This document shows, piece after piece, positions 32,409-53,992 of a stretch of DNA of 64,000 bases. The position numbers and the translations under genes are program-made. Source of the DNA: Candidatus Eremiobacteria bacterium (lineage in GTDB: Bacteria > Vulcanimicrobiota > Vulcanimicrobiia > Vulcanimicrobiales > Vulcanimicrobiaceae); assembly GCA_963737065.1 (NCBI GenBank), contig CAVTRC010000001.1:2048001-2112000 (forward strand), written 5' to 3'. The notes under the pieces were generated by a model. It did no database searches. It was not told where the DNA came from and saw only the letters and a program-made list of their open reading frames with translations. Numbering within the stretch: position 1 is the first letter of the stretch; every line of letters starts with the position of its first letter.

Positions 32409-32624
32409 ATGTTTGACGTCGGTCGTTCACTGCAACATGGCCTTGATGACGCGCAAAATCGCTTGCGGGAGTCGCAAGCCGCGGTCGCGGAGGCGAACGC
32501 GGGTCGTCCGAGACGTTCCACTGATGCCGCTATGGCGGAAACGGCGCGGGCGGCAATCTTCAACGAGGCGTTACTTGGTGCATTGCACGCACGGCTTCAG
32601 GAACTCAAGGCCGTCACGCGCTGA
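32409..32624 (+). CDS. miniature FlgB-like axial protein
   Basis: C-terminus (DAAMAETARAAIFNEALLGAL..RLQELKAVTR) resembles the FlgB C-terminal helix; lies upstream of flgC. Confidence 0.45.
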   Translation: MFDVGRSLQHGLDDAQNRLRESQAAVAEANAGRPRRSTDAAMAETARAAIFNEALLGALHARLQELKAVTR

Positions 32625-32645
32625 GCCGTAGAACGCTCGTGTCTT

Positions 32646-33050
32646 ATGGCGGCAACTGCAGGCGAGTGCGCCGGCGCGAGCGTCACAATCGAAGACTCCG
32701 ATCTCGGGCGTTGGACGGCCGCCCGTTGGGCGCCGCCGCGGACATCGCCGTTATTCAATCTGATCGAACGGATCTGGTATTTCGACGGAGCGCTAGCGAA
32801 TGCAAAAGAGCGCGTCTTCCCGGACGGTCGTTCGGAACTGATCGTCATGCTGGACGAGCCGCATCGCGACGGCGATACCGCGCTTCCCGGCCGTTTCCGA
32901 TCGTGTGCATTAATGGCCTTCGCACGCGACCTTCGGCCGTGATTGCACCGCGCGGACCTTGCCGCGATCTCGGTATCTCGCTTGAAGTCGCGGGAGCGTG
33001 TGCGCTATCCGGGGTCGCCGAGCCTCGCCGAACCGTAACCATTTTTACAA
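32646..33050 (+). pseudogene. N-terminal fragment of an AraC-type regulator (DUF6597-like), truncated and frameshifted
   Basis: LIERIWYFDG...ERVFPDGRSELIV motif; no helix-turn-helix half. Confidence 0.55.
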
Positions 33051-33084
33051 GACACCTGGCCCGGGTTCGGTTTACGATCGGTTC

Positions 33085-33486
33085 ATGAATATGACGCAAA
33101 GGCAACCGCTTCAATCGATCTATCCAACCGTTCGCTACGACGACGCTCGCGGCGCAATCGACTGGCTCACGTCTTGTCTCGGCTTCAGCGAACAGGTCGT
33201 CTATCCGGGTGAAGGCGTGACGATCGCCCACGCACAGTTGGCGCTGGGCGGAAATCTCATCATGTTGGGCAGCACGAAAGACGACCGCTTCGGCGTTTAC
33301 ATTGCGCTCGATACTCCGGAGGAGGTCGATGCGCATTACGCGCGCGCGAAGGCAGCCGGTGCGCAGATCGTTCGGGATCTCTGCGACACCGAGTACGGAT
33401 CGCGTGAATTCGGCGTACGCGATCCCGAGGGCCACCTCTGGAGTTTCGGAACGTACCGTCCGCAGGCAGGCGAAACAACGCCGTAA
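33085..33486 (+). CDS. VOC/glyoxalase family protein
   Basis: YDDARGAIDWL...GF and DTEYGSREFGVRDPEGHLWSFG motifs. Confidence 0.9.
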   Translation: MNMTQRQPLQSIYPTVRYDDARGAIDWLTSCLGFSEQVVYPGEGVTIAHAQLALGGNLIMLGSTKDDRFGVYIALDTPEEVDAHYARAKAAGAQIVRDLCDTEYGSREFGVRDPEGHLWSFGTYRPQAGETTP

Positions 33487-33531
33487 CGCCCGCGTCAATC
33501 GTCGCTCACGCCTGCTCCGTATCGTGACCGC

Positions 33532-33864
33532 ATGGATACGGATTTGCTGCAAACGGCCGCGAGCGGAATGGACGCGCAGCGCGCAGCGCTCGATGTCTAT
33601 GCGCGAAACGTTGCCGCCGCTGAAGCGGCCGGACGCGACGGGCACTTCGAGCGCCTCGTTCCTCAGTTCGAATTGCGCGATGACGACGACGGAACGACCG
33701 TCGAATTCACGGGTGCGCAAACGGATCGCGGAAAGAGCGTGGACATCGTGACCGAGATGATCGCGGTAATGAACGCGTCGCGCGCCTATGAAGCCGACGC
33801 ATCACTCTTCGACGTCGGCAAAACGCTGGCACAACGGACGATCGATATGGGGCGGCTGCAATGA
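33532..33864 (+). CDS. flgC: basal-body rod protein FlgC-like
   Basis: AASGMDAQR..LDV.A.NVA and VDIVTEMIAVMNASRAYEA motifs. Confidence 0.85.
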   Translation: MDTDLLQTAASGMDAQRAALDVYARNVAAAEAAGRDGHFERLVPQFELRDDDDGTTVEFTGAQTDRGKSVDIVTEMIAVMNASRAYEADASLFDVGKTLAQRTIDMGRLQ

Positions 33865-34127
33865 AGGTGGAATTGCTCCAGCCCGACGTTTCCCCGGCGC
33901 CCGCGGCAAGCGCAGCGAGCGGCTCCGCGTTTTCGCGAGCGTTGGACGGCGTCGGGGCGTTGCTCGACGGCGCCAACGCTGCAGAGGACGCTTTCGCGAA
34001 CCGGGTTGGGTCGTTGCAACGCGCGGTGTACGAACGCGCGCGCGCCGATGTCGCATTGTCTGTTGCAACGGCAGCCGCTCAGCGTAGCGCGCAGGCCCTC
34101 ACGTCGATCCTCAACATGCCGATTTGA
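33861..34127 (+). CDS. fliE: FliE-like hook-basal body protein
   Basis: FSRAL...ADVALSVA...LTSILNMPI; lies between flgC and fliF. Confidence 0.75.
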   Translation: MKVELLQPDVSPAPAASAASGSAFSRALDGVGALLDGANAAEDAFANRVGSLQRAVYERARADVALSVATAAAQRSAQALTSILNMPI

Positions 34128-34129
34128 CC

Positions 34130-35599
34130 ATGTCGCTCGATTCATTTCTGGCTCGTGTCGCGTCGCTGCCCCAGCGGGTGAAGGCCGCCGCGATCGCGGT
34201 TGGCGCGTGTGCAATCGTCATCGGGATCGTCGTCGGCATTGTAGCGAACGCTCCGCGAACGCCGCTCTTCGCGCAGCCGCTGCATCCCGACCAGCTCGCG
34301 GAGGTCGAGGATCGTTTGGCACAGTGGAACGTCGCGTTCACGCCCAGCGGTGAAAATGTCGTCGTCGATGCCGGCCGCCGGAACGACATACTCTTGCGCT
34401 TGTCGCTTGCCGGTGTGCCGCACGCGCACGTTGCAACGACCGGCGAAGCGCTCGCGAACGTCGGTGTTCTGACCCCGCAAGCGGTCGTTGAGGCGCAAAC
34501 GCGCAGCGGCCTTGCCGGCGAAATCGAACTTGCGTTACGCAGCATCAACGGCGTGGACGAGGCGCGCGTCATCATTGCACCGGGTAAACTCGCGCAATTT
34601 GCTGACCAAGGTTCAGCCGATGCCTCGGCGAGCGTGCGCCTTCAACTGCATCCTGGCGTTCGTCTCTCGCGCGCGTCGATCGCCGGAATTCGCTCGTTTG
34701 TCGCAGCCAGCGTTACGGGCCTCGATCCGTCTCATGTCACGATTCTCGACGATCGCGGCGTCGCGCTGAGCGCGGACGCCGGTACTATCGATGACGGAAG
34801 CGTGCTCCAGACATCGCTACAAACGGCGCTCGATGACGCGCTCGGGGCCGGTGTCGCAATTGTCCGTGTCCACGCTGAATATGCCTCGGCGGAAAACGAA
34901 CAACGTGACGTGCGGCGTACTCCGCTCGGCAACACGCCGATTCAGCGCGACTCGGCGTCCGAATCGTTCGACGGTCAAGGCCGGCGGTACGAGAAGAACG
35001 ACGAGCACGACGATCGCGGAAGCGACGTGCATGAAACCGTCTCGCGCCTGCCGCGCGGTTCACTCGCGCGGATCACCACCGCTGTCTTCGTCGACGCGCA
35101 AAACAGCGTTCCCGTTGAAACGGTGAGCGCACTTTCCGCGGCGACCGTCGGGTACGATCCGCGGCGCGGCGATACGCTCACCGTTGAAGCGGTGAACTTC
35201 CATCACGCGCGCTCGCAGCCCCACGATATCTGGTTTCTGCTCTACGGCGCGCTCGTACCGTTGCTTCCGACGCTCGCGATCGTACTGGGTGTTCTCGTCG
35301 CGGGCCGGCACGCAGCGCCGCACGTTGCATCGATGACCAAGCGATATTTCGAACGTACCTCGCTTGCGCGCATCTCCTCGCGCGCGGCAGGCGTTGAACC
35401 GGCGCAACTCCGCGGCGCGCTTGTCAACGAACCGCCGCATGCTGCCGCCGCGATCATCAGTGCGTTGCCCGCTGCGACGGCGGCGGCCGTGCTCGAACTC
35501 TATCCGCCGCACGAGCGAGAAGCGATCGTGCGACGCATGCAGCGCGCGCATTCGCCGCTCGTTCCGGATGCATCCGAGATCCTCGGGCGCCATGCTTGA
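34130..35599 (+). CDS. fliF: FliF MS-ring protein with a fused FliG-middle-like C-terminal domain
   Basis: TM1, YscJ/FliF ring motifs (LRLSLAGVP, GVDEARV, ASASV, VTILDDRG), VGYDPRRGDTLTV, TM2, then an EHPQ-like EPPHAAAAIISAL segment. Confidence 0.8.
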   Translation: MSLDSFLARVASLPQRVKAAAIAVGACAIVIGIVVGIVANAPRTPLFAQPLHPDQLAEVEDRLAQWNVAFTPSGENVVVDAGRRNDILLRLSLAGVPHAHVATTGEALANVGVLTPQAVVEAQTRSGLAGEIELALRSINGVDEARVIIAPGKLAQFADQGSADASASVRLQLHPGVRLSRASIAGIRSFVAASVTGLDPSHVTILDDRGVALSADAGTIDDGSVLQTSLQTALDDALGAGVAIVRVHAEYASAENEQRDVRRTPLGNTPIQRDSASESFDGQGRRYEKNDEHDDRGSDVHETVSRLPRGSLARITTAVFVDAQNSVPVETVSALSAATVGYDPRRGDTLTVEAVNFHHARSQPHDIWFLLYGALVPLLPTLAIVLGVLVAGRHAAPHVASMTKRYFERTSLARISSRAAGVEPAQLRGALVNEPPHAAAAIISALPAATAAAVLELYPPHEREAIVRRMQRAHSPLVPDASEILGRHA

Positions 35600-36086
35600 T
35601 CGATTTCTATCCATGCGTGAGTGGCTTGCGCGCGACGGCGAATCGCCGGCTGCCTCGGCCGACGTCGAAACGTACGAAGAACCGGCGGTTGAATCGGAAG
35701 CGTCGCCGGCGCACGCCGCAGACGACGAGATCGACGTGGCGATTGCCGAGGCCCGGCGTTTTCGTGCGTCGCTTGCCGATGCGCTCGCGATGCGAGTCGA
35801 CGAACTGATGCGCGATATCGCAAGCGAAGTGCTCGCACGCGAACTCGAGCTCGCGCCTTGCGATGTAGCGCGCATCGTTGAGCGCGCGGTGCAACGATAC
35901 GGCACCGAACCCGTATGCATTCGCGCCAATCCAACCGACGCAAACGTACTCCGGCGCAGCGATACGATCGTGATCGCGGACGATAGCTTGCGCGGCGGTG
36001 ACGTAGTTCTCGAAGTGCGATACGGCAGCATCGATGCCACGCTCGGCGTCCGGCTCGAACGCGTGCTCGGGGCGCGTACGCAATGA
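35592..36086 (+). CDS. fliH: FliH/SctL-like export stator-stalk protein
   Basis: IASEVLAREL, IRANPTD and DDSLRGGDVVLE..GSIDATL motifs. Confidence 0.75.
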   Translation: MLDRFLSMREWLARDGESPAASADVETYEEPAVESEASPAHAADDEIDVAIAEARRFRASLADALAMRVDELMRDIASEVLARELELAPCDVARIVERAVQRYGTEPVCIRANPTDANVLRRSDTIVIADDSLRGGDVVLEVRYGSIDATLGVRLERVLGARTQ

Positions 36087-37330
36087 TCGCGCGGGGAACG
36101 GTCCGCAACGTGCGGCGCGGCTGCCTCGACGTTGCGATCGCGCCGCTCGCTGCCGGAACGGCGGTACGCATTGCGTTACGCGACGGTTGGAAGCGCGGCA
36201 CGGTAACGTCGAGCGAAAACGGCTTGGTAAGGGTCGCGCTCATCGGAAGCACGGACGGCGTCGTGCCGGGCGCACGCGCGGAAGAGGATCGCACGGGTCA
36301 GACGCTCGTCCTGGGAACGGCGGCGCTCGGGCGCGCGATCGACGCGTTCGGAAGACCGGTTGACGTTGGTGCGTCGCTGTGCGGCGTGCGCGTTCGCATT
36401 CCGGCAGCGCGCGTGCCACCACCGGATCGCATCGCGGTCGATGCGCCGCTTTGGACGGGCGTTCGCGTGATCGACGCGCTGCTGACGATCGGCCGCGGAG
36501 CGCGCATCGGACTCTTCGGTTCACCGGGCGCAGGCAAGAGTACGTTGCTCGAAACGATCGTTGAAGGCGTCCGTTGCGACGCGGTGGTCGTTGCGCTCGT
36601 CGGCGAACGCGGACGCGAAGCAGAACGATGGATCGCGCGGCGCAGCGCGCGCACAACGGTTGTCTGCGCGACGAGCGATTGCCCCGCGCGCGAACGCGTC
36701 GCTGCGGCGCACACCGCGCTCGCACAGGCGCGCGCGCTCGCGCAACGGGGGTTGCACGTACTCGTGATTCTCGATAGCCTCGCTCGCGTGGCGTACGCGT
36801 TGCGCGAAGACCGCGCCGACGAGCCGGCCGGGCGTGCGGGCTATCCGCCGAGCGTCTTTGCAGATCTTGCGCAACTCGTCGAGTGCGCAGGTGCCTTCAC
36901 GCGCGGTTCCGTTTCGCTACTCGCGACCGTCTTGAACGACGGCGAGGAGCGTGACCCGGTGAGTGAAGCGGCGCGCTCGCTGCTCGACGGGCACATCGAG
37001 CTCTCGTCGAAACTCGCGCAAGCGGGGCGGTTTCCAGCCGTCGACGTGCCGGCGAGCGCGAGCCGGACGATGGCCGCCGTTACGACGCCCGAACATCAAC
37101 GCGCTGCAACGAGGGTTCGGGCGGCATTGGCAGCGTTGCGCGACAGTGAAGATCTGCGCTCGCTCGGGATTGACGTGCGTGAGCCGCTCGCCGTCGCCGC
37201 GGTCGCCCAGCAACGCAAATTGGAGGCGCTGCTGCGCCAGGGACGGTCGCCCTGCCCTCCGCGACAGACCCTAACCCTCCTCTTCGAAATCGCCGATACC
37301 TTGGGAGAGCCCGATGAATATCACGTCTGA
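36083..37330 (+). CDS. fliI: FliI/SctN export ATPase
   Basis: GSPGAGKST, LVGERGRE, LDSLAR, GYPPSVF and LDGHIELS motifs. Confidence 0.92.
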   Translation: MIARGTVRNVRRGCLDVAIAPLAAGTAVRIALRDGWKRGTVTSSENGLVRVALIGSTDGVVPGARAEEDRTGQTLVLGTAALGRAIDAFGRPVDVGASLCGVRVRIPAARVPPPDRIAVDAPLWTGVRVIDALLTIGRGARIGLFGSPGAGKSTLLETIVEGVRCDAVVVALVGERGREAERWIARRSARTTVVCATSDCPARERVAAAHTALAQARALAQRGLHVLVILDSLARVAYALREDRADEPAGRAGYPPSVFADLAQLVECAGAFTRGSVSLLATVLNDGEERDPVSEAARSLLDGHIELSSKLAQAGRFPAVDVPASASRTMAAVTTPEHQRAATRVRAALAALRDSEDLRSLGIDVREPLAVAAVAQQRKLEALLRQGRSPCPPRQTLTLLFEIADTLGEPDEYHV

Positions 37331-37940
37331 TCTTGCCGCGGTCGAGCAGCGCATCACGCAAATCACCGGATCGACCGTCGAACTGCCCGGCTTCTCGCAC
37401 GCGCAGGATGAATCCGCATCCTTTAGCGACATGGTGCGTGCGCAGCTTTCCGCGCAAAACGGGCAGCAAGGCGATGGCAATGATATCGCCGGCACCGCGC
37501 CCGGCGCCCCGCTTGGGATGAGCCCACCGGCAATCGTTCCTCCCGCGCAAATCGACCGGCTCGTGCACTCGAACGCATCCCAGTGGAACGTGGATCCCGC
37601 GCTTGTAAAGGCAATCATTGCAAACGAGTCCGGATTTAACGTGAATGCGACATCGAATGTCGGTGCGCAAGGGCTCATGCAGCTGATGCCCGGCACGGCA
37701 GCCGGTCTCGGTGTCACAAATGCGTACGATCCTGCGCAGAACGTGTGGGGAGGCACTCGGTACATCAAGGGACTGCTCGACCGATTTAACGGCGACGTGC
37801 GAAAAGCGGTCGCAGCCTACAATGCGGGACCGGGTGCAGTAGAGAAATACGGTGGCGTACCTCCGTATGCCGAAACGCAAAACTACGTCGAAAACGTTCT
37901 CGCCAGTTACGAAAAGTACCGCAGCCCGAACACTCCGTAG
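37314..37940 (+). CDS. lytic transglycosylase (SLT domain)
   Basis: ES catalytic motif, GAQGLMQLMPGT, AYNAG and PPYAETQNYV motifs. Confidence 0.92.
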   Translation: MNITSDLAAVEQRITQITGSTVELPGFSHAQDESASFSDMVRAQLSAQNGQQGDGNDIAGTAPGAPLGMSPPAIVPPAQIDRLVHSNASQWNVDPALVKAIIANESGFNVNATSNVGAQGLMQLMPGTAAGLGVTNAYDPAQNVWGGTRYIKGLLDRFNGDVRKAVAAYNAGPGAVEKYGGVPPYAETQNYVENVLASYEKYRSPNTP

Positions 37941-37956
37941 TGTCTTGCTTGCGGCG

Positions 37957-39513
37957 ATGGGTTGCGCGCTGGTCGCGCAAACCGCACCGTCGCATCCTTC
38001 CGTCGAAACGATTCTCAAGAACCACGCCGCCGCGCTTTCCGCGATGCGTTTGCGCGTACCGCAGACGCATGAAACGCAAGGCAGCATCGAAGGTCTCGGG
38101 TTGCAAGGAACCTTCCACGAATGGCAGGCGGGAAACAAACAACGTCGAGACGAGCGTCTCGGCTTTCGCGTGCAGCGCGAGCTGCGGGTCGGCGACAATC
38201 TCTGGATCGAGAACACCAGCGGCGAGATTCGCGAACTGCACGGCTTGCTCGCGCGCCGGCAATTGACGGATGATTTCATCGACACCGGCGTCTTCGCGAA
38301 GCATCCGGAGAGTGCGCGCTATATCGAGCGCGCAACGCTTCCGGACGGGCGGGTCGTTTACCGCTTGTCCATTGCGCCCCCGCAGGGCGAGCGGTTCGTC
38401 ATCGGGATTGATGCGAAGACGTGGCTCATCGACCAGAAGTCGTACATTGAAAACGATGCGCCTCAGGTGTCGACGTATTCCGACTACCACGTCGTCGACG
38501 GCCTGTTGATTCCGTACACCGAGGTTGATTCGACCGGCGATACAAAATTCGACGTGACGTCACACGTCACGAACGTAATGGTCAATCAGCCCATCGCCGA
38601 TTCGATCTTTGCGCCGCTTGCGCCTGAAGCGGTCGGAGCCGATACACCGGTGCGCGTGCCGCTTGAGATTCATAACGGTCTGCCGATGGTCAAGGTCACG
38701 ATCTCCGGACACACGTACCGGTTCCTGATCGATTCGGGCTCGCAAGGCAACGTGTTGGATCCGCACGTCTCGAAAGAACTCGGCTTGCATCCGGAGGGAA
38801 CGCTCGAGATTCGGGGAGCCGAACGGACGCCGAGCCTCGGGGTCGTTGAAACACCGCCGATGGAAGTGGGCGGCATGCAATTGCCGTCGCGGATTGCGAC
38901 GGTCCTCGACCTGAGCAAAATTCTACGCGGGCCATATCCGCTCGACGGCGTGCTAGGCTATCCGTTCTTCGCGGCGGCGGAAATCCGCTTCGATCCGGAC
39001 ACCAATGAATTGATCGTTGCCAAGCCCGGATTGCTGCCCGTGCTCGGCGAGAAGCTCCAGGTCGATACGGATCGCGAGCTCGTCGAGGTTGAGGCCACGA
39101 TCGACGGAACCGCGAAGACGCGGCTGCTCGTCGATACGGGAAACTCGAACGAATTATTGCTTTTCCAAAGTTTCATCAACGCACATCAAGGCCTCATTAT
39201 GTTCGCGGGAAACCCTTCGGTCGCAAACCGGGGCGCAGGCGGTTCCGCGCCGGCTGTGACGGCGATGGTCGACGAACTGCAAATCGGCAGCCAGCGTCTC
39301 TTCAATCGCTACACGGACGTTATTCTTGCAAGCGCTGGTGCGTTCGCCGACCGCAACGACGGCGGTAACGTCGGATATGGCGTGCTGCACAACTTCGTTG
39401 CGACGTTCGACCTTGCAGACCGTTCGATCTACTTACAAAAAGCGAGAAATTTCGATGATGGCCGCTTTCGTCAACGGACCGAGAGCGGCCAAATCTTGCC
39501 GTGGCGTTCATAA
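37957..39513 (+). CDS. exported protein with two retropepsin-like aspartyl protease domains (start uncertain)
   Basis: FLIDSGS...DGVLGYPFF and LLVDTGN...GNVGYG motifs. Confidence 0.8.
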   Translation: MGCALVAQTAPSHPSVETILKNHAAALSAMRLRVPQTHETQGSIEGLGLQGTFHEWQAGNKQRRDERLGFRVQRELRVGDNLWIENTSGEIRELHGLLARRQLTDDFIDTGVFAKHPESARYIERATLPDGRVVYRLSIAPPQGERFVIGIDAKTWLIDQKSYIENDAPQVSTYSDYHVVDGLLIPYTEVDSTGDTKFDVTSHVTNVMVNQPIADSIFAPLAPEAVGADTPVRVPLEIHNGLPMVKVTISGHTYRFLIDSGSQGNVLDPHVSKELGLHPEGTLEIRGAERTPSLGVVETPPMEVGGMQLPSRIATVLDLSKILRGPYPLDGVLGYPFFAAAEIRFDPDTNELIVAKPGLLPVLGEKLQVDTDRELVEVEATIDGTAKTRLLVDTGNSNELLLFQSFINAHQGLIMFAGNPSVANRGAGGSAPAVTAMVDELQIGSQRLFNRYTDVILASAGAFADRNDGGNVGYGVLHNFVATFDLADRSIYLQKARNFDDGRFRQRTESGQILPWRS

Positions 39514-39566
39514 CATCGTAACGGCATGATGATTGCGCGGTGATGCACCGCGCGCATCATCGGCCA

Positions 39567-40100: not shown

Positions 40101-40104
40101 GCCG

Positions 40105-41598: not shown

Positions 41599-41870
41599 TG
41601 ACTGTCGATACAAAGAAAGTGAAGGACCGCGCTAACCTTGACGTGCTGATGCACGTGCCGCTCACCGTGACCGCCGAACTTGGAACATCGAAGATGTCCG
41701 TCGCGGAAGTCCTCAAATTGGGCACCGGTTCGATCGTCGAACTCGACCGCCTCGCCGGCGGCCCGGTCGATCTTCTTGTAAATAATAAGCTGATCGCGCG
41801 CGGCGAAGTCGTCGCGGTCGATGAGAACTTCGGCGTTCGCGTCACCGAGTTGATTTCGCGACCGATTTAA
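41595..41870 (+). CDS. fliN: FliN C-ring protein
   Basis: [21 protein letters not shown] and [19 protein letters not shown] motifs. Confidence 0.95.
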
Positions 41871-41941
41871 CGGCACGCGCGTTCACGCCGTTGCAATAAT
41901 GGGTTCACGCAAGGGTGACGCGTACGCGTCACCCTTGTTGC

Positions 41942-44207: not shown

Positions 44208-44219
44208 GGCGCGATTGTA

Positions 44220-46931: not shown

Positions 46932-46995
46932 GTCCGAGTCCGCTAGAAAACGAGCACAGACGAGTGATACGACAGAGGGGGCGCGGTACTCTTTG

Positions 46996-48225: not shown

Positions 48226-48334
48226 GGGACGAGCCTCCGTCAAATAGACTGCCATGCTAACCGTAGCCCGCAGTGTACGCGTGCGTATCGTAACGAACGT
48301 CCCGATAGGTATAGGGCCTAAGGGGAACCGCTTG

Positions 48335-49888
48335 CTATGTGTCCGGCATCTCTATCGGGCGTTCGCGATGCGCGAGCAGCCAATCGGCGTTCTCGGATAA
48401 CGCTTCACGTGCAAGCGAACGGAATAGTGCGCGCGCGGCCTCCGGCTCCTGGTCTTCCCGCTGCAACATCTCCCGCAGCTCTTTCGCGGCCGAGCGGTAG
48501 AGGTCCGACATGCGCGCGTATTCGCGCGCGTGGTACGCCCATGCCGACCGATCGGCATACCCATGAATCAAGGCAGACAACGCCGCGAAAACCGATATAA
48601 AAAATATGATGAATTCGCGCGCGTGATCCACACGCAACGGCACCAGCTCGTTCGCGACCAGCGCGAGCGTTAAAATGCTCACCGCGAGAATCAATACGCC
48701 GCTCGCGCGCTGTGTGAGCGCGACGCGAGTTTCGTCACGCCTTTTCGCGCGCGCAAAAAAGCGCTGCTGATCTTCAACCCACGCCTCACGCGCATCGCGT
48801 GCGCGCTCGACCCATTGCTGCTCCTTCAGGTGACGTTCGGCATGCCACCCGTCATAGCGCGACGACGAGCGCAATGCTTTACGCACCCACTCGAGCTCCA
48901 CTTCATGCTTGCGTTCGTACAGCGCGCCGAGGTCGCTGCCGAGATCGAGTGCATTCCAAAATCGCTGGATTCGCAGCGCTTCGCTCAACGCCCGGTAGTC
49001 CTGACTTTTTGATTCATAGCGTCGAGCGCGCGCAGACGCCACGACGAAGAACGCGGCGGCGAACGAAATGAGGTTCGCGATGAGAAAGATAATGGGCGGA
49101 GCGCCCGAGCTCAGCGAGACGTCTAATTCGTATCCGAGGAGCGCTAACACCGCGGCCCCGATGAACGCAAAGGTGCAATCCAACGCGCGGTTCTGTTCTG
49201 CATGGAACCGCATCGCGAGTTCATCGGCAACTGCGAAAAGCGTTGGACGCGGCTGCACCGGAAAGTCGGCCTCGGCATCACGGTTGAATTCGTCGACACG
49301 CGACCACGTTGCCGGTTGCGGCATATGATGGGTTCGCGATATGCGCTGCTCGACGTTCGTCGAGCCGTTGCGTGAGACGATGATCCAATCAATCGGTTCG
49401 GTATTTGCGATGCGCGCGTCGACCACGTCGGCCGTCCCGCCCGCGCCGCGAGCGGGCAGACCGTCCCAGAGCGCGATCAGTAAATCGCTCGTACTCGCGA
49501 TAAAAGCGCCGAGTTCTGCATAGCGCTCGTCGTCTCCGATCGGCCCCGACGCGGTCGGTACGACGAAACTCGTCTTTGCTTGCGCAAGAAGCGCATCGAA
49601 CGATTCCAACGACCCCGGCGTCGTGAAGTCTTTTCGGTATTCATCAACACTCACCGGCAGCGGAACGATAAGTTCGAGCTCGAGCGCGAGCGCTGCCTCC
49701 GCGACGATCCGGTCGGCGCCCTCCGCGAGCGGTGAAAGCACAACGATCGGCGTGTGCGGATAATCGCGACCCAGTTGGCGTAGCCGCTCTGTCACTAAAT
49801 CTCGCGCCGCATCGACGTGCGCTTCCGCGACGTCCCGATGGCCGGTGACGCCGACAAGCAAGGGGATTGCGCCGTCTGAACTGGCCAT
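48335..49888 (-). CDS. SLOG (YpsA-like) domain fused to two 2-TM SLATT/DUF4231-like modules
   Basis: VGVTGHRD, SPLAEGADR and IALWDG...GGTADVV; TM pairs followed by DYRALSEALR and EAL.ENADW. Confidence 0.7.
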   Translation of the reverse strand: MASSDGAIPLLVGVTGHRDVAEAHVDAARDLVTERLRQLGRDYPHTPIVVLSPLAEGADRIVAEAALALELELIVPLPVSVDEYRKDFTTPGSLESFDALLAQAKTSFVVPTASGPIGDDERYAELGAFIASTSDLLIALWDGLPARGAGGTADVVDARIANTEPIDWIIVSRNGSTNVEQRISRTHHMPQPATWSRVDEFNRDAEADFPVQPRPTLFAVADELAMRFHAEQNRALDCTFAFIGAAVLALLGYELDVSLSSGAPPIIFLIANLISFAAAFFVVASARARRYESKSQDYRALSEALRIQRFWNALDLGSDLGALYERKHEVELEWVRKALRSSSRYDGWHAERHLKEQQWVERARDAREAWVEDQQRFFARAKRRDETRVALTQRASGVLILAVSILTLALVANELVPLRVDHAREFIIFFISVFAALSALIHGYADRSAWAYHAREYARMSDLYRSAAKELREMLQREDQEPEAARALFRSLAREALSENADWLLAHRERPIEMPDT

Positions 49889-49960
49889 TGATTCCTCGCG
49901 GACGTGAGGACGCGATATTCGCGCAATATTTTCGAAACGCCCGCACGATAGCGTCGGCGC

Positions 49961-50230
49961 ATGGATGGGTTTGCGGGACTGCTACGCGAGGCAATGGTTT
50001 TGGCGGCGGTGCTCTGCGTGCCGGTGCTCGGTGTTGCGGCTCTCGTTGGAACCGCGATCGCGGTCGTGCAAGCCGCAACGCAAATACAGGAGCAAACGTT
50101 GACACTGCTTCCCAAGATGCTTGCCGTCGGCTTCACGATCGCGCTCTTCGGCGGCTTTGCGATGCACGCGTGCGAAGCGCTCTTCCACCACGCGCTCGAT
50201 GCGATTCCCGCACTCGTGTACGGCCCGTGA
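49961..50230 (+). CDS. fliQ: export gate protein FliQ/SctS
   Basis: QAATQIQEQTLTLLPK motif. Confidence 0.92.
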   Translation: MDGFAGLLREAMVLAAVLCVPVLGVAALVGTAIAVVQAATQIQEQTLTLLPKMLAVGFTIALFGGFAMHACEALFHHALDAIPALVYGP

Positions 50231-50937
50231 CTGCCGCGTCGTTACTCGTTTTCGCGCGCTGCGCCGGCTTCGTCTTTCGCGCGCCGGGCTTTTCGCATCC
50301 GAGCGTTCCGCGCGCGCTTCGTGCCGGTCTCGCACTGGCGCTCGCCGCAGCGATCGCTCCCGGCGTTCACGTTCGAACGTTGGACGGCGCCGCCCTGATC
50401 GTCGGTGTCGCGACCGAATTTGCGCTCGGGACGGCGATCGGCATAGCGGCCTCGCTGTTGTATGACGGTGCGTATGCCGGCGGACGGATGTTGGACGACT
50501 ACGTCGGGGTGAAAGCGATTGCGCCGAACGTCGATCTTGTCGCGCCGAGCGGGTTCGGGCGGCTTTGGTCACTGGCATTTACCGGCGGATACTTTCTCTT
50601 CGGCGCATATGGCCCGGCCATATCGACGTTCGCCGCGAGTTTCGACCACATCGCACTCGGTGCGCCGTTCGACCCGCATGCATGGGAACCGTTTGCGATC
50701 TCGGTTGCAACGACGATCGTGACCGTAGCGGTTGCGGTTGCTGCACCGGCAGTTGCGCTCGCGTTCGTTACGCAGATTGCGCTTGCGGCGCTCGCGCGGA
50801 CGGTCCCGCGGTTCGCGACCTTCTCGCTTTCCTTTCCGGTCGTCTTCGGCGTCGTGCTGATCGTGACGGCGCTCTCCATTCCGATCGCCGTATCGCAGGC
50901 AGCGCATCCGTTCGTTCTCATTCCGGGCGTACGATGA
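50227..50937 (+). CDS. fliR: export gate protein FliR/SctT
   Basis: FAR..GF...PGF, EFALG and LARTVP.F..FSLSFP motifs; located between fliQ and flhB. Confidence 0.85.
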   Translation: MTAASLLVFARCAGFVFRAPGFSHPSVPRALRAGLALALAAAIAPGVHVRTLDGAALIVGVATEFALGTAIGIAASLLYDGAYAGGRMLDDYVGVKAIAPNVDLVAPSGFGRLWSLAFTGGYFLFGAYGPAISTFAASFDHIALGAPFDPHAWEPFAISVATTIVTVAVAVAAPAVALAFVTQIALAALARTVPRFATFSLSFPVVFGVVLIVTALSIPIAVSQAAHPFVLIPGVR

Positions 50938-51944
50938 GCGACGCATCAGAGAAGCAATTCGATGCCACACCGTCCCGCGTCGCAAAAGCACGCCGCGAGG
51001 GCAACGTTCCGCGCTCGCAAGAACTTGCGGCGAACATCGCATTCATTGCTGCGGCACTGTGCGTCGCAGCAGTCTCGCCTTTGTTCAACGCTGCGGCACA
51101 GCGCGCGCTCGCGCGGGCGGCGGGCGGTATGGATGCCGTGGCCGATACGCTCGCAATGCTGGCATGCGCAGTTGCGGTTGCAGCCGGCAGTGCAGCCGCA
51201 GCCGCCGTTGCCGGCGTCATTCAGACCGGGGGTGTTACAATCGTCGCGCCATCGTTCAACGTCTCTCGTCTCGCGCCGGGCGAGGGCATCAAACGCATGT
51301 TGTCCGGTGAAACGGTAACGCACGCGGTTCGCGCGCTGTTCGCATTTGCGGTCGCCGGAGCCGCGACCGTTGCGTCGATGTGGTCGCTCTTCGGAGTCGC
51401 GCGAGAAAGTTCACATATTGACGCGGTGGCCGCGACGGCATGGAACGGTGCAGAACACGTCGTGTTTGCAGCCGCGGCCGTCGGTATGGGCTTTGCAACG
51501 ATCGAATACGCCGTCGCGCGGCGTTCGTGGCTCTCGAAGCTCAAGATGAGCCTGCATGAGCTGAAACGGGAACTGAAAGAGAACGACGGTGATCCGGCGG
51601 CGCGAGCGCGCCGGAAGGCATTGCATCGCAGCCTCATTCGCGGCGCGATCGCGAAGGTCAAAGACGCCTCGTTCGTCGTCGTGAATCCGACGCACGTTGC
51701 GGTTGCGCTCGAATACCGTCCGCCTGCCGTACCGGTGCCGGTCGTTCTCGTGCGCGCTGCAGACGAGATGGCGTTGCGCGTTCGCGCGCTCGCGGCGCAA
51801 AGCGGCATTCCGATCATCGAAAACATCGCGCTCGCGCGTGCACTTTTCGCCCAGACGCAGCCCGGCGAAGCGATACCGCATGAGTGCTACGTCGCGGTCG
51901 CGGAAATCGTCGCGTCGCTCATCCGCAGCGGAGCGTTCGAATGA
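50934..51944 (+). CDS. flhB: export switch protein FlhB/SctU
   Basis: EKQFDATP....AR.EG.VPRS, KE.DGDP and the NPTH autocleavage motif. Confidence 0.92.
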   Translation: MSDASEKQFDATPSRVAKARREGNVPRSQELAANIAFIAAALCVAAVSPLFNAAAQRALARAAGGMDAVADTLAMLACAVAVAAGSAAAAAVAGVIQTGGVTIVAPSFNVSRLAPGEGIKRMLSGETVTHAVRALFAFAVAGAATVASMWSLFGVARESSHIDAVAATAWNGAEHVVFAAAAVGMGFATIEYAVARRSWLSKLKMSLHELKRELKENDGDPAARARRKALHRSLIRGAIAKVKDASFVVVNPTHVAVALEYRPPAVPVPVVLVRAADEMALRVRALAAQSGIPIIENIALARALFAQTQPGEAIPHECYVAVAEIVASLIRSGAFE

Positions 51945-53992
51945 CGAAACTCCCTGTTTATGCTTTTGCGGCGTGTTTGCTCGCAATCGTGGCGATTTTG
52001 ATCGTGCCGCTGGCGCCCTGGCTGCTCGACGTGCTGCTCGCCATCAATGTGTTCGGTTCCGCGCTTGTGCTGTTGCTCGCCGTGACGATTGATGACCCGC
52101 TCGAGTTCTCAGCCTTTGCGCCGGCATTGCTGGTCGCGACGCTCTTCCGCCTGTCGCTCGACGTGTCGGCGACGCGGCTCATCTTGACCGATGGAGCAAC
52201 ACCGGGCGCAGTCGGTGCAATTATCCCGGCTTTCGGCGCGTTCGTCGTTCACGGGAATCTCGTCGTCGGTTTGATCGTCTTCGCCATTCTCATCACGATT
52301 CAATTCATCGTGATCGCGAGCGGATCGCAGCGAGTTGCCGAAGTCGCCGCGCGCTTCACGCTCGACGCGATGCCCGGCAAACAGATGGCGATCGATGCGG
52401 ACGTGCACGCCGGCGTGCTCGATGCCGACGGCGCGCGGCGCAAACGCGCGCTCGTGCAGCGCGAAGCCGATTTCTACGGCGCGATGGACGGCGCCGGAAA
52501 ATTTGTGAAAGGCGATGCCGTCGCTGCACTGGTCATCGTCGGCTTGAACCTTTCGGGCGGCATCGTCGTCGGCATTGCGTATCACGGAATGCCGCCGCTC
52601 GACGCACTCAACACCTACGCGTTGCTCTCCATCGGCAATGCGCTCGTGACGACGCTGCCGGCGTTTCTGATTTCGACCGCGATGGGCATGATGGTCACGC
52701 GCGTCGCTTCGGACGGCGCGCTCGGTGCCGATCTCGCCGCGCAGCTTTTCGCGCGTCCCGACGTATTGCGCAGCGCGGGTGCGCTGCTGATCGTCCTCTC
52801 GTTCGTTCCCGCATTGCCGCGGCCGGTGTTTTTCATGCTCGGCGGATGCGCGTTCGTTGCAGCGCAGCTCGCGGCGCGCAAACAACGCGCGCGCGTCCGG
52901 CAGGCGACGGCGGAAAGCGAGCGCGCAAAGCGGCAGGCGCTCCGGCGACCGGAACTTGCGCTCGGACTCGTGGGCGTGGATGCGATGTCGATCGACATCG
53001 GCTCGGAGATCGCGCACCTCCTAGTGCCGCCGCTGGCGGACGCGCTATTGGATCGTATCGGCGAAGTCCGTCGCGCGCTTGCAACGGAGATCGGTATCGT
53101 GCTTCCGGGCGTGCGGCTGCGCGACGATCTCGCGCGCGACGCACAGACGTATGCGATCCGCGTTCGCGATCGGATTGCCGGAGAAGGGCGGTTGCAGCTT
53201 GAGCGCGTCCTTGCGGTCGCCGACGTCTCGGTGCTGTCGCGCTTCGGCCTCGATGTGCAGCCGGAACCCGTCTACGGGCTTCCGTCCGCGTGGATCGATT
53301 CGGCGCAACGTACCGCGCTCGCCGATGCGGGCGCTTTAGTGTTCGATCCCATTTCGATCGTCGGATCGCATGTCGCGGAAACCGTACGGCGGTATGCAAG
53401 CGAACTCGTCGGCCGCCAAGAGCTACAGACGATGCTCGAACATCTGCGCGCAACGATGCCGGCTCTCGTTAAAGAAATCGGCACGGACGCGTTCCCACTT
53501 GGCGTATTGCACCGTGCGTACGTGTATCTGTTGCGCGAGGGCGCCTGGCCGCGCGACCCCGTCGCGCTCTTGCAGGCGATGCTCGAGGCGCCGACGCGCG
53601 ACCCACGCGAACTTGCGGAGGCGGCTCGTCGCGCGATCGTTCCCGATCTGCTGCGCCGGCGCGGTGTGAGCAAACTCGAGCCGCTCTTGCTCGACCCCGA
53701 ATACGAGCGCGAACTGACGCGAGCTTGGGTTAGCGCTACGGTTGAAATCGCTCCCGATCCCGACCGCGCGCTCTCACTGCGAGACCAAGTAGCGTCGTAT
53801 TCGGCTCGAGTACCGCGCGAGCGAGCGGCCGTCGTCTGTATGCCGCCATTGCGGCCGGTGCTCGCGGACTTCCTTATGCGGAGCGGAGTCCGGACGGAAG
53901 TATTCGCGTATGGTGAACTGCCCCCGGAGTTGCAGTTAGTTCCGGCCGGAGTGGTGAACCATGAGCCGCGGCCCTTGGCGGCATTTGTTTGA
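51941..53992 (+). CDS. flhA: export gate protein FlhA/SctV
   Basis: RVAEVAARFTLDAMPGKQMAIDAD and FYGAMDGAGKFVKGDA motifs. Confidence 0.95.
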   Translation: MTKLPVYAFAACLLAIVAILIVPLAPWLLDVLLAINVFGSALVLLLAVTIDDPLEFSAFAPALLVATLFRLSLDVSATRLILTDGATPGAVGAIIPAFGAFVVHGNLVVGLIVFAILITIQFIVIASGSQRVAEVAARFTLDAMPGKQMAIDADVHAGVLDADGARRKRALVQREADFYGAMDGAGKFVKGDAVAALVIVGLNLSGGIVVGIAYHGMPPLDALNTYALLSIGNALVTTLPAFLISTAMGMMVTRVASDGALGADLAAQLFARPDVLRSAGALLIVLSFVPALPRPVFFMLGGCAFVAAQLAARKQRARVRQATAESERAKRQALRRPELALGLVGVDAMSIDIGSEIAHLLVPPLADALLDRIGEVRRALATEIGIVLPGVRLRDDLARDAQTYAIRVRDRIAGEGRLQLERVLAVADVSVLSRFGLDVQPEPVYGLPSAWIDSAQRTALADAGALVFDPISIVGSHVAETVRRYASELVGRQELQTMLEHLRATMPALVKEIGTDAFPLGVLHRAYVYLLREGAWPRDPVALLQAMLEAPTRDPRELAEAARRAIVPDLLRRRGVSKLEPLLLDPEYERELTRAWVSATVEIAPDPDRALSLRDQVASYSARVPRERAAVVCMPPLRPVLADFLMRSGVRTEVFAYGELPPELQLVPAGVVNHEPRPLAAFV

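Follow-up and report, generated by a model that had tools for sequence, protein, structure and literature searches.

A reduced flagellar-type export gene cluster conserved across Candidatus Eremiobacterota

Candidatus Eremiobacterota (Vulcanimicrobiota) is a poorly studied phylum of soil bacteria. The window, a 64-kb stretch of DNA from one of its members, was predicted to carry a co-oriented set of flagellar-type genes, and this set was confirmed on the plus strand at positions 32409..53992, with Pfam and NCBIfam matching all members except the flgB-position and switch proteins:

32409..32624, plus strand: flgB-position protein, 71 aa, with two predicted conserved helical halves
33532..33864, plus strand: FlgC, proximal rod protein, 110 aa (Pfam Flg_bb_rod and Flg_bbr_C)
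33861..34127, plus strand: FliE-like protein, 88 aa (Pfam FliE, E 4e-4; TIGR00205, E 2e-4; both under cutoff)
34130..35599, plus strand: FliF, MS-ring protein, 489 aa (Pfam YscJ_FliF, E 2.5e-26; YscJ_FliF_C, E 1.6e-9)
about 35592..36086, plus strand: short FliH, about 160 aa (Pfam FliH, E 1.1e-9)
36083..37330, plus strand: FliI/SctN-type export ATPase, 415 aa (Pfam ATP-synt_ab, E 2.6e-55, and T3SS_ATPase_C)
37314..37940, plus strand: apparatus-dedicated lytic transglycosylase, SLT (Pfam SLT, E 1.2e-29)
39540..40100, plus strand: FliK/SctP-type substrate-switch (T3S4) protein, 186 aa, or about 177 aa if translation starts at the ATG at 39567
40105..40827, plus strand: single FlgE/FlgF/FlgG-family axial protein at the flgE position, 240 aa (Pfam FlgE/F/G D1, E 1.9e-5)
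40824..41598, plus strand: FliM, middle and C-terminal SpoA domain, with FliMN_C in a second frame
41595..41870, plus strand: FliN, 91 aa (Pfam FliMN_C, E 3.4e-26)
41915..42598, plus strand: FliP, export-gate protein (Pfam FliP, E 5.4e-73)
49961..50230, plus strand: FliQ (Pfam Bac_export_3, E 3.4e-21)
50227..50937, plus strand: FliR (Pfam Bac_export_1, E 1e-28)
50934..51944, plus strand: FlhB (Pfam Bac_export_2, E 2.6e-73), with an NPTH motif
51941..53992, plus strand: FlhA (Pfam FHIPEP, E 6.1e-189)

A FliF relative is encoded in 199 species genomes, from which 80 loci were fetched, and the examined DNA comprises the window and at most 10 kb on either side of fliF in these relatives. The gene order, which runs from the flgB-position gene over flgC, fliE, fliF, fliH, fliI, the SLT gene, the fliK/sctP-like gene, the flgE/G-like gene, fliM, fliN and fliP to metF, fliQ, fliR, flhB and flhA, recurs across the 80 loci, and all 16 core genes are found together in 37 of them. 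FliI, the switch protein, the FlgE/G-like protein, FliM and FliN are each encoded in all 63 loci that span fliF to fliP, FliH in 58 (tblastn) and the SLT protein in 57. The cluster is flanked by housekeeping genes, which have the same order in relatives as in the window. The original prediction of a reduced flagellar-type export system is thus upheld by gene content and order kept across 80 loci of one phylum; no published description of this cluster was found in the literature.

The basal body and axial proteins are small. FlgC has 110 aa compared to 151 aa in Thermomicrobium roseum, the FliE-like protein 88 instead of 99 aa, the flgE-position protein 240 instead of 423 aa and the fliK-position protein 186 instead of 467 aa, in agreement with the predicted shortening of the axial components. 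FlgC is present in 74/74 loci; its match to TIGR01395 (E 8.5e-15) lies under the cutoff, and the family profile finds FlgC in the PDB with an E of 1.2e-9. The FliE-like gene likewise occupies the canonical site between flgC and fliF in 74/74 loci; its family profile has no match in the PDB, and the sequence-based assignment as FliE-like is weak. The FlgE/G-like protein, 238 to 242 aa long in 66 loci, matches FlgE (E 5.8e-10) and FlgG (E 4.6e-4) in profile searches of the PDB. The first gene of the cluster had been described as flgB-like. It is indeed conserved at the flgB position, being present in 73 of the 74 loci whose sequence extends far enough upstream, and located directly 5' of flgC in 71 of these 73, and the protein alignment A2 has a mean column identity of 73%; however, its identity as FlgB is unproven. 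No match to the PDB or Pfam and no significant match to FlgB was obtained in any search, hhalign yielded an E of 0.58 against T. roseum FlgB and of 0.017 against the FlgC family, and the sole lead to FlgB is a language-model match in the ESM Atlas (0.85).

FliF carries a FliG_M-like segment fused to its cytoplasmic C-terminus (Pfam FliG_M, E 3.4e-7), which is widespread: PF14841 was detected on 117 of the 120 FliF homologs among the matches listed, and the C-terminal motif is nearly invariant (alignment A1). A weak hhalign match places the tail on residues 126-158 of T. roseum FliG (E 0.0038, probability 8.8%). The predicted lack of a free-standing fliG holds in that none was found by Pfam in the scanned ORFs, but it overlooked the FliG_M remnant on FliF. 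Judged by sequence, FliG is reduced to a middle-domain remnant, with its torque-generating part apparently removed. FliM lacks the N-terminal CheY-binding segment. In the window, fliM changes frame near 41310-41330, which is probably an assembly error; relatives encode FliM in one ORF of about 252 aa. The L002 ortholog, modelled with AF2 (pLDDT 81), resembles Salmonella FliM in Foldseek (E 2.8e-12) and FliM middle domains (TMt 0.53-0.59). A complex model of FliM and the FliF tail reached an ipSAE of 0.71 (0.72, 0.71 and 0.68 in the individual runs, with at least 93% contact agreement and a partner pLDDT of at least 71) compared to 0.00 for the best control, thereby passing a mark that was attained by 116 of 157 solved complexes and by 2 of 215 mismatched pairs, and the modelled interface is formed by invariant residues of both families. 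Solved FliG-FliM complexes exist, and for this reason the pass indicates likeness, possibly drawn from model memory; the FliG_M-like remnant possibly docks onto the fold-verified FliM. FliN exceeds the cutoff of TIGR02480 (102 versus 84 bits).

The start codon of fliH (ATG at 35592) overlaps the stop codon of fliF. FliI scores nearly equally with the NCBIfam models of SctN (308 bits) and FliI (303 bits), both far under cutoff. Its Walker A motif (GSPGAGKS) and the NPTH motif of FlhB were both found, as expected from the catalytic motifs predicted to be intact. The SLT protein matches the NCBIfam flagellar-assembly lytic transglycosylase under cutoff (E 2.1e-24), and its SLT domain is 56% identical to that of the T. 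roseum gene located after fliJ. The switch protein has no sequence match in Pfam or the PDB, and Flg_hook was matched by one of 39 family members (E 0.012). The protein falls near HpaP/SctP clusters in the ESM Atlas (0.93-0.94), and the C-terminal domain of its AF2 model (pLDDT 77-92) retrieved the switch domain of PscP (5cuk; E 1.4e-3, TMt 0.56) and the C-terminal domain of FliK (2rrl; E 1.3e-2) as the top two Foldseek matches.

FliP scores over the cutoff of its model (TIGR01103, 229 versus 217 bits). An N-terminal signal peptide is not apparent by eye, and no fliO precedes fliP, the gap between fliN and fliP being at most 69 nt in 59/62 loci. The GTG start codon of fliR at 50227 overlaps the stop codon of fliQ. 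FlhB scores with SctU (216 bits) and FlhB (202 bits), both under cutoff, and FlhA reaches 580 bits with TIGR01398 (cutoff 772) and 474 bits with the SctV model. In trees, the Eremiobacterota clade groups with canonical FlhA, but a grouping with SctV was not rejected by the AU test, and the originally proposed independence from the injectisome lineage is a possibility.

Motor and filament genes were predicted to be missing from the window, and this agrees with a Pfam scan of ORFs of at least 110 aa before 31.5 kb and, from there on, of at least 75 aa on the plus and 140 aa on the minus strand: free-standing FliG, FliJ, FliO, FlgD, FliL, MotA/B, FlgH/I, FlgK/L, FliD and flagellin had no match in these ORFs, and a FliG C-domain was not found in the window. 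Similarly, tblastn with 33 T. roseum flagellar proteins left 19 without a match, both in the window and in all 80 loci (FliO, FliL, MotA, MotB, FlbD, FlhF, FliA, FlgM, FlgK, FlgL, FliW, CsrA, FliG, FliJ, FlgD, FlgB, FliK, FlgE and FliE); FlgB, FliK, FlgE and FliE are probably present and too diverged for tblastn. The rest of the genome could still encode genes such as fliC, flgKL, motAB, full-length fliG or a secretin gene. A study of flagellar gene trees in Chloroflexota, which places Eremiobacterota among the phyla grouping close by for one or more of FliC, FliI, MotA, FliP and FlhA (PMC10284905), hints at normal flagellar genes in Eremiobacterota. The only cultured member of the phylum, V. 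alpinus, is described as having neither flagella nor a flagellin gene, and Table S8 lists fliN only (PMC9758169); V. alpinus is not named among the 120 matches listed in the homolog search. No outer-membrane component was seen in the examined DNA, although a diderm envelope is described for this isolate (PMC9758169).

The system could also have an altered or reduced function. Most relatives lack the N-terminal domain of FliI, and the FlhB motif varies among 39 relatives (NPTH in 14, another NPxH in 22, none in 3); NPxH is kept in 36/39. Decay by relaxed selection, named beforehand as an outcome contradicting the original prediction, was not seen, since the 15 cluster genes whose ortholog is present in L002 or L001 have dN/dS values of 0.04-0.31 (FlgC and FliN 0.04-0.05, flgB-position gene 0.09-0.12, FlgE/G-like protein 0.10, FliH 0.26-0.31; control, neighbouring AcrB, 0.08-0.09), which indicate purifying selection, the ratios being rough at a dS of about 1, near saturation.

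We favour, with a probability of roughly 0.6, an Eremiobacterota version of the flagellar type III export apparatus, which was stripped of the requirements for rotation and a filament and vertically inherited across the phylum. That the system is conserved, selected and reduced is very likely, and the lack of both rotation and a filament is likely. A complete gate (FliP, FliQ, FliR, FlhB, FlhA) and the ATPase pair FliH and FliI are encoded. FliF rings would bear their own FliM-docking site, so that a FliM-FliN-FliH-FliI sorting platform would hang directly on the MS ring; with no FliG C-domain, there would be no rotor-stator interface and therefore no rotation. The SLT protein would cut a hole, through which the gate would export the rod components and the one hook-like protein to form a short stub. 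The switch protein and FlhB, through NPTH, would then change the substrate class, after which non-flagellar proteins may be exported into the periplasm or beyond. Export of non-flagellar cargo as the function of the system is a tentative proposal at slightly less than even odds. The cluster resembles a flagellum converted into a device that exports proteins without rotating, and it is kept phylum-wide.

The original prediction of a reduced export set stands, this set being conserved and selected, but its map is to be corrected for the FliG remnant in FliF and for unrelated genes located in the same stretch:

32646..33486, plus strand: frameshifted AraC-like fragment and glyoxalase, inserted between the flgB-position gene and flgC
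37867..39513, plus strand: secreted double aspartyl-protease-like protein with two retropepsin-like domains (Pfam Asp_protease_2 twice, E 4.6e-21)
42608..43504, plus strand: metF, methylenetetrahydrofolate reductase (Pfam MTHFR, E 1.2e-91), between fliP and fliQ
43524..49888, minus strand: four-gene insert encoding an ArsR-type regulator, a TIR-NB-ARC-TPR NTPase, a beta-propeller protein and a membrane protein (Pfam, NCBIfam)

The four opposite-strand genes, which have weak matches in PADLOC, were rejected as parts of the system because they are specific to the window, tblastn finding them at the same place in 0/80 loci. One weak propeller match was observed in L004, at another site. The AraC-like fragment, which shows a frame change relative to a 285-aa ORF of L002, and the glyoxalase were also rejected, since L002 is the only one of the 80 loci that shares them; Pfam matches Glyoxalase (E 3.7e-13) and, weakly, DUF6597 in this stretch. 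The aspartyl-protease-like protein, whose translation has a hydrophobic N-terminus, is accessory rather than core; its gene is present in 21/63 spanning loci, with a rough dN/dS of 0.08-0.11. The metabolic gene metF is a conserved passenger, which lies downstream of fliP in 54/59 loci, immediately so in 46/59, and is followed by fliQ in 45/45 loci with enough sequence.

The window has a G+C content of about 61%, at which GC3-based gene calling could not separate the reading frames, and it contains so many spurious ORFs that the genes were identified by scanning ORFs with Pfam and NCBIfam profiles. The scans bore out the gene list and coordinates of the original prediction, but they also revealed unrelated genes within the same stretch that it had overlooked, namely an AraC-like fragment, a glyoxalase gene, a gene for a retropepsin-like protein, metF and four genes on the opposite strand.

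Genes of the cluster and of its insertions, in window coordinates
32409-32624, + strand: conserved gene for a 71-aa protein at the flgB position
between the flgB-position gene and flgC: AraC-like fragment and glyoxalase gene
33532-33864, + strand: flgC
33861-34127, + strand: fliE-like gene
34130-35599, + strand: fliF
about 35592-36086, + strand: fliH
36083-37330, + strand: fliI
37314-37940, + strand: SLT lytic transglycosylase gene
37867-39513, between the SLT gene and the fliK-like gene: predicted exported protein of 548-553 aa with two retropepsin-like domains
39540-40100, + strand: fliK/sctP-like gene
40105-40827, + strand: flgE/F/G-family gene
40824-41598, + strand: fliM
41595-41870, + strand: fliN
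41915-42598, + strand: fliP (Pfam E 5e-73)
42608-43504, after fliP: full-length metF, methylenetetrahydrofolate reductase (Pfam E 1e-91)
43524-49888, - strand: four-gene insert, which separates metF from fliQ
49961-50230, + strand: fliQ (Pfam E 3e-21)
50227-50937, + strand: fliR (Pfam E 1e-28)
50934-51944, + strand: flhB (Pfam E 3e-73)
51941-53992, + strand: flhA (Pfam E 6e-189)

All five proteins of the export gate, FliP, FliQ, FliR, FlhB and FlhA, as well as FliH and FliI are encoded in the window according to Pfam, several adjacent genes of the cluster overlap by 4 bases, and the catalytic motifs expected from the first reading, Walker A in FliI and NPTH in FlhB, are both seen. The four products encoded by the island at 43524-49888 are a regulator of the ArsR/Csa3 type, a TIR-NB-ARC-TPR NTPase of 903 aa, a beta-propeller protein resembling Vgb lyase and a membrane protein of 517 aa, the last with a weak SLATT-like match (Pfam, NCBIfam). 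PADLOC returned only weak matches for this window-specific island, which looks like a defence-type island; insertions occur at the spot after metF.

FlgC and one FlgE/G-family protein were confirmed as axial proteins by comparing family profiles with solved structures. The FlgC profile finds FlgC at E 1.2e-9, and the profile of the 240-aa protein, which occupies the flgE position of Thermomicrobium roseum and comprises just D0 and D1, matches FlgE (E 5.8e-10) and, less strongly, FlgG/FlgF. The FliE-like protein is named after sub-threshold profile matches and its position, and its family profile found no solved structure. Sequence-only identification of the protein at the flgB position failed; a language-model look-alike, a FlgB cluster at 0.85, is the sole lead. 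As anticipated, the axial parts are shortened: the product at the fliK position has 186 aa and the hook-position protein 240 aa, compared to 467 and 423 aa in T. roseum. The gene originally described as fliM-like encodes a true FliM. Pfam recognizes only its C-terminal SpoA domain, which a PDB profile also finds; the AlphaFold model of the ortholog from L002, one of the two loci closest to the window (pLDDT 81), matches full-length Salmonella FliM (Foldseek E 2.8e-12) as well as the middle domains of FliM proteins (TMt 0.53-0.59), and both the CheC-like middle domain and the SpoA C-terminal domain are present. Judged by its length (252 aa versus 334 aa), the protein lacks the N-terminal CheY-binding segment.

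Sequence searches alone gave no match for the 186-aa protein. The model of its C-terminal domain (pLDDT 77-92) has as its two best Foldseek matches the PscP switch domain 5cuk (E 1.4e-3, prob 1.00, TMt 0.56) and the FliK C-terminal domain 2rrl (E 1.3e-2), and a language-model search places the protein beside HpaP/SctP clusters (0.93-0.94). It is thus predicted to have the C-terminal T3S4 fold of the FliK/SctP switch proteins and is referred to as the switch protein in the following. The 548-553-aa protein encoded between the SLT and switch genes was also considered as FliK and rejected; it is a predicted exported double retropepsin-like protein (DSG/DTG domains; dN/dS 0.08-0.11), which only a subset of the phylum carries (21 of 63 loci). 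FliI retains its N-terminal domain in the window and in the closely related loci L001, L002, L032, L047 and L052, and is about 350 aa long in most other loci (L003, L008, L017, L019, L026, L033, L043, L050, L053, L056), where this domain of about 70 residues is lacking and the space separating fliH from fliI is too small to encode it. The autocleavage motif of FlhB was inspected in 39 loci and reads NPTH in 14, NPQH in nine, NPEH in seven, NPAH and NPDH in two each, and NPVH and NPNH in one each; three loci have none. The T. roseum gene next after fliJ and before flgB (19014-19997 of the flagellar locus L089) bears an M23 peptidase annotation and has a C-terminal SLT domain, which shares 56% identity with the SLT protein of the cluster (37557-37910 of the window); based on this identity, the cluster hydrolase looks like an ortholog of the flagellar one.

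At E <= 0.001, the database contains 1045 relatives of the window FliF. Among the 120 listed, almost all are 454-492 aa long and 117 have the same three Pfam domains, and where names are given they indicate Candidatus Eremiobacterota and its genera. When one genome per species was scanned with the FliF family alignment A1, relatives turned up in 199 genomes, and the best 80 of these 199 loci were fetched. Their titles are mostly Eremiobacterota or Vulcanimicrobiota; a few are labelled 'uncultured bacterium', 'Acidoferrum', 'Acidiferrales' and, in one case, 'Alphaproteobacteria'. The loci L039, L005, L007, L014 and L021 and the FliF relatives P0337 and P0345 are labelled as members of different phyla (Binatia, Babeliales, Alphaproteobacteria, Acidoferrum), which means either that the system extends beyond Eremiobacterota or that the bins carry wrong labels. 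Comparison of the window proteins with the 80 loci by tblastn revealed a recurring order: flgB-position gene, flgC, fliE, fliF, fliH, fliI, SLT, (protease), switch gene, flgE/G-like, fliM, fliN, fliP, metF, fliQ, fliR, flhB, flhA. FliI, the switch protein, the FlgE/G-like protein, FliM and FliN are encoded in all 63 loci that span fliF to fliP, accompanied by FliH in 58, SLT in 57 and the protease in 21. Where upstream sequence is available, FlgC and FliE are each found in 74/74 loci and the first gene in 73/74. metF follows fliP in 54 of the 59 loci with sequence past fliP, directly so in 46, and fliQ follows metF in all 45 loci with sequence past metF; 37 of the 80 loci hold all 16 core genes. 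Examples of closed chromosomes of the phylum with this cluster are OY969805.1, OY970311.1, OY970335.1 and OY970207.1. It is odd that a metabolic gene such as metF is fixed within an export-gate operon across the phylum (window; loci L003-L078). The upstream flank of five distant loci consists of housekeeping genes (GreA, LysS, PAP2, TruA, L13, S9, DUF3810) arranged as in the window, and flagellar genes were found in the upstream flank of neither these five loci nor the window. The shared gene order together with the same housekeeping flank indicates that the cluster has been inherited vertically for a long time.

fliH is located directly 3' of fliF, so there is no fliG gene at this position. 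The C-terminal end of FliF, around 50 residues, is recognized as FliG_M by Pfam (E 3.4e-7); this fused remnant is present in 117 of the 120 FliF homologs listed, and the FliG_M-like segment is the most conserved part of FliF in alignment A1. A weak hhalign match (E 0.0038, prob 8.8%) places the FliF end on residues 126-158 of T. roseum FliG, with E-P-P-H against E-H-P-Q, a stretch which we take to be the FliM-binding motif of FliG. When the FliF tail (393-489) was modelled together with FliM, the complex obtained an ipSAE score of 0.71 (runs 0.72, 0.71 and 0.68), while the best of three controls scored 0.00; 116 of 157 solved complexes attain the mark used for this score, as do 2 of 215 mismatched pairs. 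At least 93% of the contacts agree between runs, the pLDDT of the partners is at least 71, and the modelled contacts (FliF 431-442 and 469-484; FliM 35-37, 88-93 and 102-112) include invariant residues of both families. This pass shows likeness and may come from the memory of the predictor because FliG_M-FliM complexes are solved. The C-domain of FliG carries the stator interface. It has no counterpart in the FliF fusion, and a rotor FliG with a C-terminal torque domain was found neither in the window nor in the 80 loci (Pfam; tblastn with T. roseum FliG).

We tentatively propose, with a probability of about one in three (0.35), that the cluster is a living example of the stage postulated by Abby and Rocha, in which rotation and filament have been lost, a rod-and-hook stub is kept and other proteins are exported. 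The system would be independent of, or near, the injectisome stem and would do without a secretin in a diderm cell; it would be old, passed on vertically and shared by most of the phylum, and its platform would be attached to the MS ring via the FliG_M remnant fused to FliF. Going by the complex model, this attachment of the sorting platform may be a solution without earlier description. In the most probable mechanism, the MS ring formed by FliF would bear its own FliM dock, and a platform of FliM, FliN, FliH and FliI would feed the export gate. Nothing would turn in such a machine because it has no FliG C-domain and no stators. A short stub of rod proteins and one hook-like protein would extend through a hole cut by the SLT enzyme, the short switch protein and FlhB would then change the substrate class, and other proteins may be exported to the periplasm or further. 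This export is the weakest step of the proposed mechanism. No cargo, chaperone or outer-membrane channel was seen in the cluster.

The same observation fits a machine that is built, but which has a structural or regulatory role and exports only its own parts, for instance an envelope-spanning stub acting as an anchor, as a mark of polarity or division or as a sensor; the housekeeping neighbours and the internal metF would likewise fit constitutive rather than conditional use. We regard this role as rather unlikely, since the switch protein is kept in all 63 loci and FlhB retains its NPxH site in 36 of 39 relatives. In known systems, both of these matter only if a second class of substrates follows. 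Furthermore, Lysobacter enzymogenes OH11, whose flagellar export system operates without flagellin and filament, is described as secreting non-flagellar proteins in a FliI- and FlhB-dependent manner, and FlgD is secreted as well, according to the available part of the report (PMC7688988).

Alternatively, the cluster could form the core locus of a normal rotating flagellum whose missing genes are located elsewhere in the genome, a scattering that is common for flagellar genes. From the two flagellar loci of T. roseum, 33 flagellar proteins were taken as tblastn queries against the window and the 80 loci. Matches were obtained for FliN, FliM, FliP, FliQ, FliR, FlhB, FlhA, FlgF/G, FlgC, FliF, FliI, FliH (one locus) and the SLT domain, and none for FliO, FliL, MotA, MotB, FlbD, FlhF, FliA, FlgM, FlgK, FlgL, FliW, CsrA, FliG, FliJ, FlgD, FlgB, FliK, FlgE and FliE. 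In the window, Pfam likewise found no MotA/MotB, FlgD, flagellin, FliD, FlgH/I or secretin. The expectation that motor and filament genes would be missing beside the cluster therefore held within the window (Pfam) and, for those queried by tblastn, in the 80 loci. The search covered only the window and flanks of 10 kb, the flagellar genes of T. roseum are split over two loci as well, the nearest relatives of the window FlhA are flagellar FlhAs, and Eremiobacterota sequences are placed near Chloroflexota in flagellar gene trees, as far as the accessible text of PMC10284905 goes. All this would be compatible with an ordinary flagellum; however, genes are gone from their canonical slots within a tightly packed operon, in which fliH follows fliF, the SLT gene follows fliI without room for fliJ, and the gap between fliN and fliP is at most 69 nt in 59 of 62 loci. 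Moreover, a FliF-fused remnant stands in place of FliG, FliK and the hook-position protein have less than 60% of their normal length, and most NCBIfam scores fall well short of the equivalog cutoffs. Vulcanimicrobium alpinus WC8-2, the one representative of the phylum in culture, has neither flagella nor a flagellin gene, glides by means of type IV pili and has a diderm envelope with LPS, and its gene table lists fliN (WPS_28550) as the only flagellar gene, in the portion of the description available to us (PMC9758169). The name of this species is absent among the 120 matches listed for the FliF of the high-G+C locus L078. Taken together, an ordinary flagellum is unlikely.

The NCBIfam equivalog cutoffs for flagellar proteins are passed only by FliP (229 bits, cutoff 217) and FliN (102, cutoff 84), while FlhA (580/772), FlhB (202/349), FliI (303/619), FliF (69/130), FliQ (66/89), FliR (67/169), FlgC (55/102) and FliE (21.5/30) remain below them; most proteins of the cluster score far below the cutoffs of both the flagellar and the NF-T3SS families. 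The ring protein scores 69 bits on the FliF model versus 35 on that of SctJ, and FlhA, FliP and FliQ score higher on flagellar models, whereas FliI and FlhB are slightly higher on SctN and SctU (308 versus 303 and 216 versus 202 bits). On the FlhA model, the window FlhA (580 bits; cutoff 772) and two relatives, L062 and P0121 (603 and 599), compare with 776-880 bits for six ordinary flagellar FlhAs and 582 bits for a true SctV of Bradyrhizobium. In a full HMMER search, the next relatives of FlhA are 46% ('Candidatus Binatus') and then 35-42% identical, and the named ones are flagellar FlhAs; the protein of 'Candidatus Binatus' scores 684 bits on the FlhA model and branches as the sister of the Eremiobacterota clade. 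Of the proteins encoded on plasmids, T. roseum FlhA shares 40.6% identity with the window FlhA, and SctVs share 31-33%. Trees calculated with LG+G4 and LG+C20 (PMSF) agree in that the five SctV sequences, none of them from Myxococcales or Chlamydiae, form one clade (100), and that the Eremiobacterota sequences group with the database proteins P0121, P0123 and the canonical FlhA P0124 (810 bits) outside of it (99); the link among the Eremiobacterota clade, the SctV clade and the other FlhAs is weak in both. An AU test, performed with LG+G4 only, did not reject a grouping of Eremiobacterota FlhA with SctV, the constrained tree being 7.55 log-likelihood units better (p 0.595). The independent repurposing put forward in the original prediction is thus favoured by the clade with a canonical FlhA, while the AU test leaves the SctV grouping in place. 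Independence from the injectisome lineage is likely rather than settled because of the non-rejecting AU test, the long branches and the set of SctV sequences sampled.

It is very unlikely that the cluster is a member or close sister of the NF-T3SS lineage rather than an independent flagellar offshoot. The AU result, the SctN and SctU scores and a switch protein that is most like HpaP/SctP/PscP would agree with such a placement; however, the AU result can also be explained by long-branch attraction in a tree of this sampling, both trees and the FlhA, FliP and FliQ scores point to the flagellar side, the ring protein is of the FliF type, and FlgC, an FlgE/G-type protein and FliM are present. Profile scans of the window detected no secretin, SctD, SctF, SctI, needle, tip or translocon family.

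In a comparison of the window with its two closest loci (Nei-Gojobori), the 15 cluster genes with an ortholog have dN/dS values of 0.04-0.31 and the neighbouring AcrB control 0.08-0.09, all of which are rough because dS is around 1. The check for relaxed selection, which would have meant decay, therefore points to purifying selection. Protein lengths are fixed across loci (medians 72, 110, 88, 490, 158, 186, 240, 252 and 89 aa). fliM is split over two frames in the window, changing at about 41310-41330, and is one ORF of about 252 aa in relatives. Further frame changes relative to intact ORFs of L001/L002 are located at about 26078 and 26430 (both in the DUF3810 gene) and about 32880 (AraC-like), and rplM, which encodes the ribosomal protein L13, has a one-base gap at about 25362 relative to L002. 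As the essential rplM is also broken, the five frame changes are most simply explained as indel errors of the assembly rather than as biology. Other apparent gene fragments are a PTS EIIC (6898-8304) and a piece of an amino-acid permease (19423-20013). Despite the many gene losses, the shortened proteins, the frameshift in fliM and the unrelated genes inserted in the cluster, a decaying, functionless relic of an ancestral flagellum is hardly credible in view of the dN/dS values, the constant lengths, the breaks in rplM and elsewhere, the 16 genes shared by 37 loci and the five middle genes kept in 63/63.

The proposed non-rotating export machine shares FliPQR-FlhBA, FliH-FliI, FliF, FliM, FliN, FlgC, the FliE-like and FlgE/G-family proteins and the switch protein with the hook-basal body of T. 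roseum, which is encoded on a megaplasmid in the Terrabacteria gene order, and its genes follow the T. roseum order flgC-fliE-fliF-(fliG)-fliH-fliI-(fliJ)-hydrolase-...-fliK-(flgD)-flgE. Unlike this flagellum, it has no FliG N- or C-domain, FliJ, FliO, FlgD, FliL, MotAB, FlhF, FliA, FlgKL or FlgM in the window or the loci and no flagellin in the window, and it differs in the FliG_M remnant on FliF, the truncated FliM and the short FliK and hook-position proteins. With injectisomes it would have in common a non-rotating mode of export, a platform built on the FliM/N homolog SctQ and on SctL-SctN, a short switch of the SctP type and a lytic transglycosylase of its own. In injectisomes, the sorting platform is attached through SctK and SctD, whereas the FliG_M remnant would serve this purpose here; the families of SctC, SctD, SctF, SctI, tip and translocon proteins were not found in the window. 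Buchnera aphidicola keeps hook-basal bodies without filaments. This reduction and that of Lysobacter also retain flagellar export genes without a functional flagellin, but are recent, occurred in flagellated families and involve near-canonical proteins, whereas the Eremiobacterota cluster is phylum-wide, remodelled and strongly diverged. To our knowledge, motor-less and secretin-less intermediates between flagellum and injectisome are known only from Myxococcales, in which the rod and hook genes have already been lost. The available text on this secretin-less and needle-less T3SS states that it lacks FlgBCDEK, FliE and FliG and belongs to the NF-T3SS clade, uses its conserved gene order as an argument against decay and proposes protein translocation or a periplasmic structure as its function; Abby and Rocha also proposed there that motility genes were lost first on the route to injectisomes (PMC3459982). 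Later work on this system is that of Thiery et al. 2022, as cited in PMC12403147. In both cases, a soil bacterium that lives free has kept the core of type III export, and motility parts, secretin and needle are missing from the system. By the published description, the Eremiobacterota cluster differs from that of Myxococcales in keeping FlgC, a FliE-like protein, an FlgE/G-type protein and FliM, and its FlhA lies outside the SctV clade as sampled, that is, without Myxococcales sequences.

A literature search by phylum names and flagellar or secretion terms found no published description of the cluster, and Eremiobacterota are not mentioned in the accessible part of a 2025 survey of FliO, which reports non-flagellar contexts (PMC12403147). 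The route from flagellum to injectisome has been inferred from phylogeny; a selected, phylum-wide system with rod, hook-like and switch parts, but without the torque domain of FliG, would show the form and action of such a machine and that a reduction of this sort is possible outside Proteobacteria. The FliF-FliG_M fusion would be a natural experiment on the attachment of the cytoplasmic ring. Cryo-tomography, knockouts and secretome analyses would be feasible in the cultured non-flagellated member if that strain carries the cluster. Since databases name these proteins 'flagellar', trait predictors may call abundant soil bacteria motile, although these Eremiobacterota are probably non-motile.

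Further upstream in the window, a PilZ-domain protein is encoded at 9514-9951, 23 kb from the cluster, and a 993-aa ORF without a Pfam match, which is open at the window start, occupies 3-2984. Directly upstream of the cluster, the window and its subgroup of about 17 loci carry an HlyD-AcrB efflux pair and a gene for a TMEM175-type potassium channel (window 27042-32389); in the other subgroup, this place is held by a divergently transcribed gene for a protein of about 400 aa with WXXGXW repeats.
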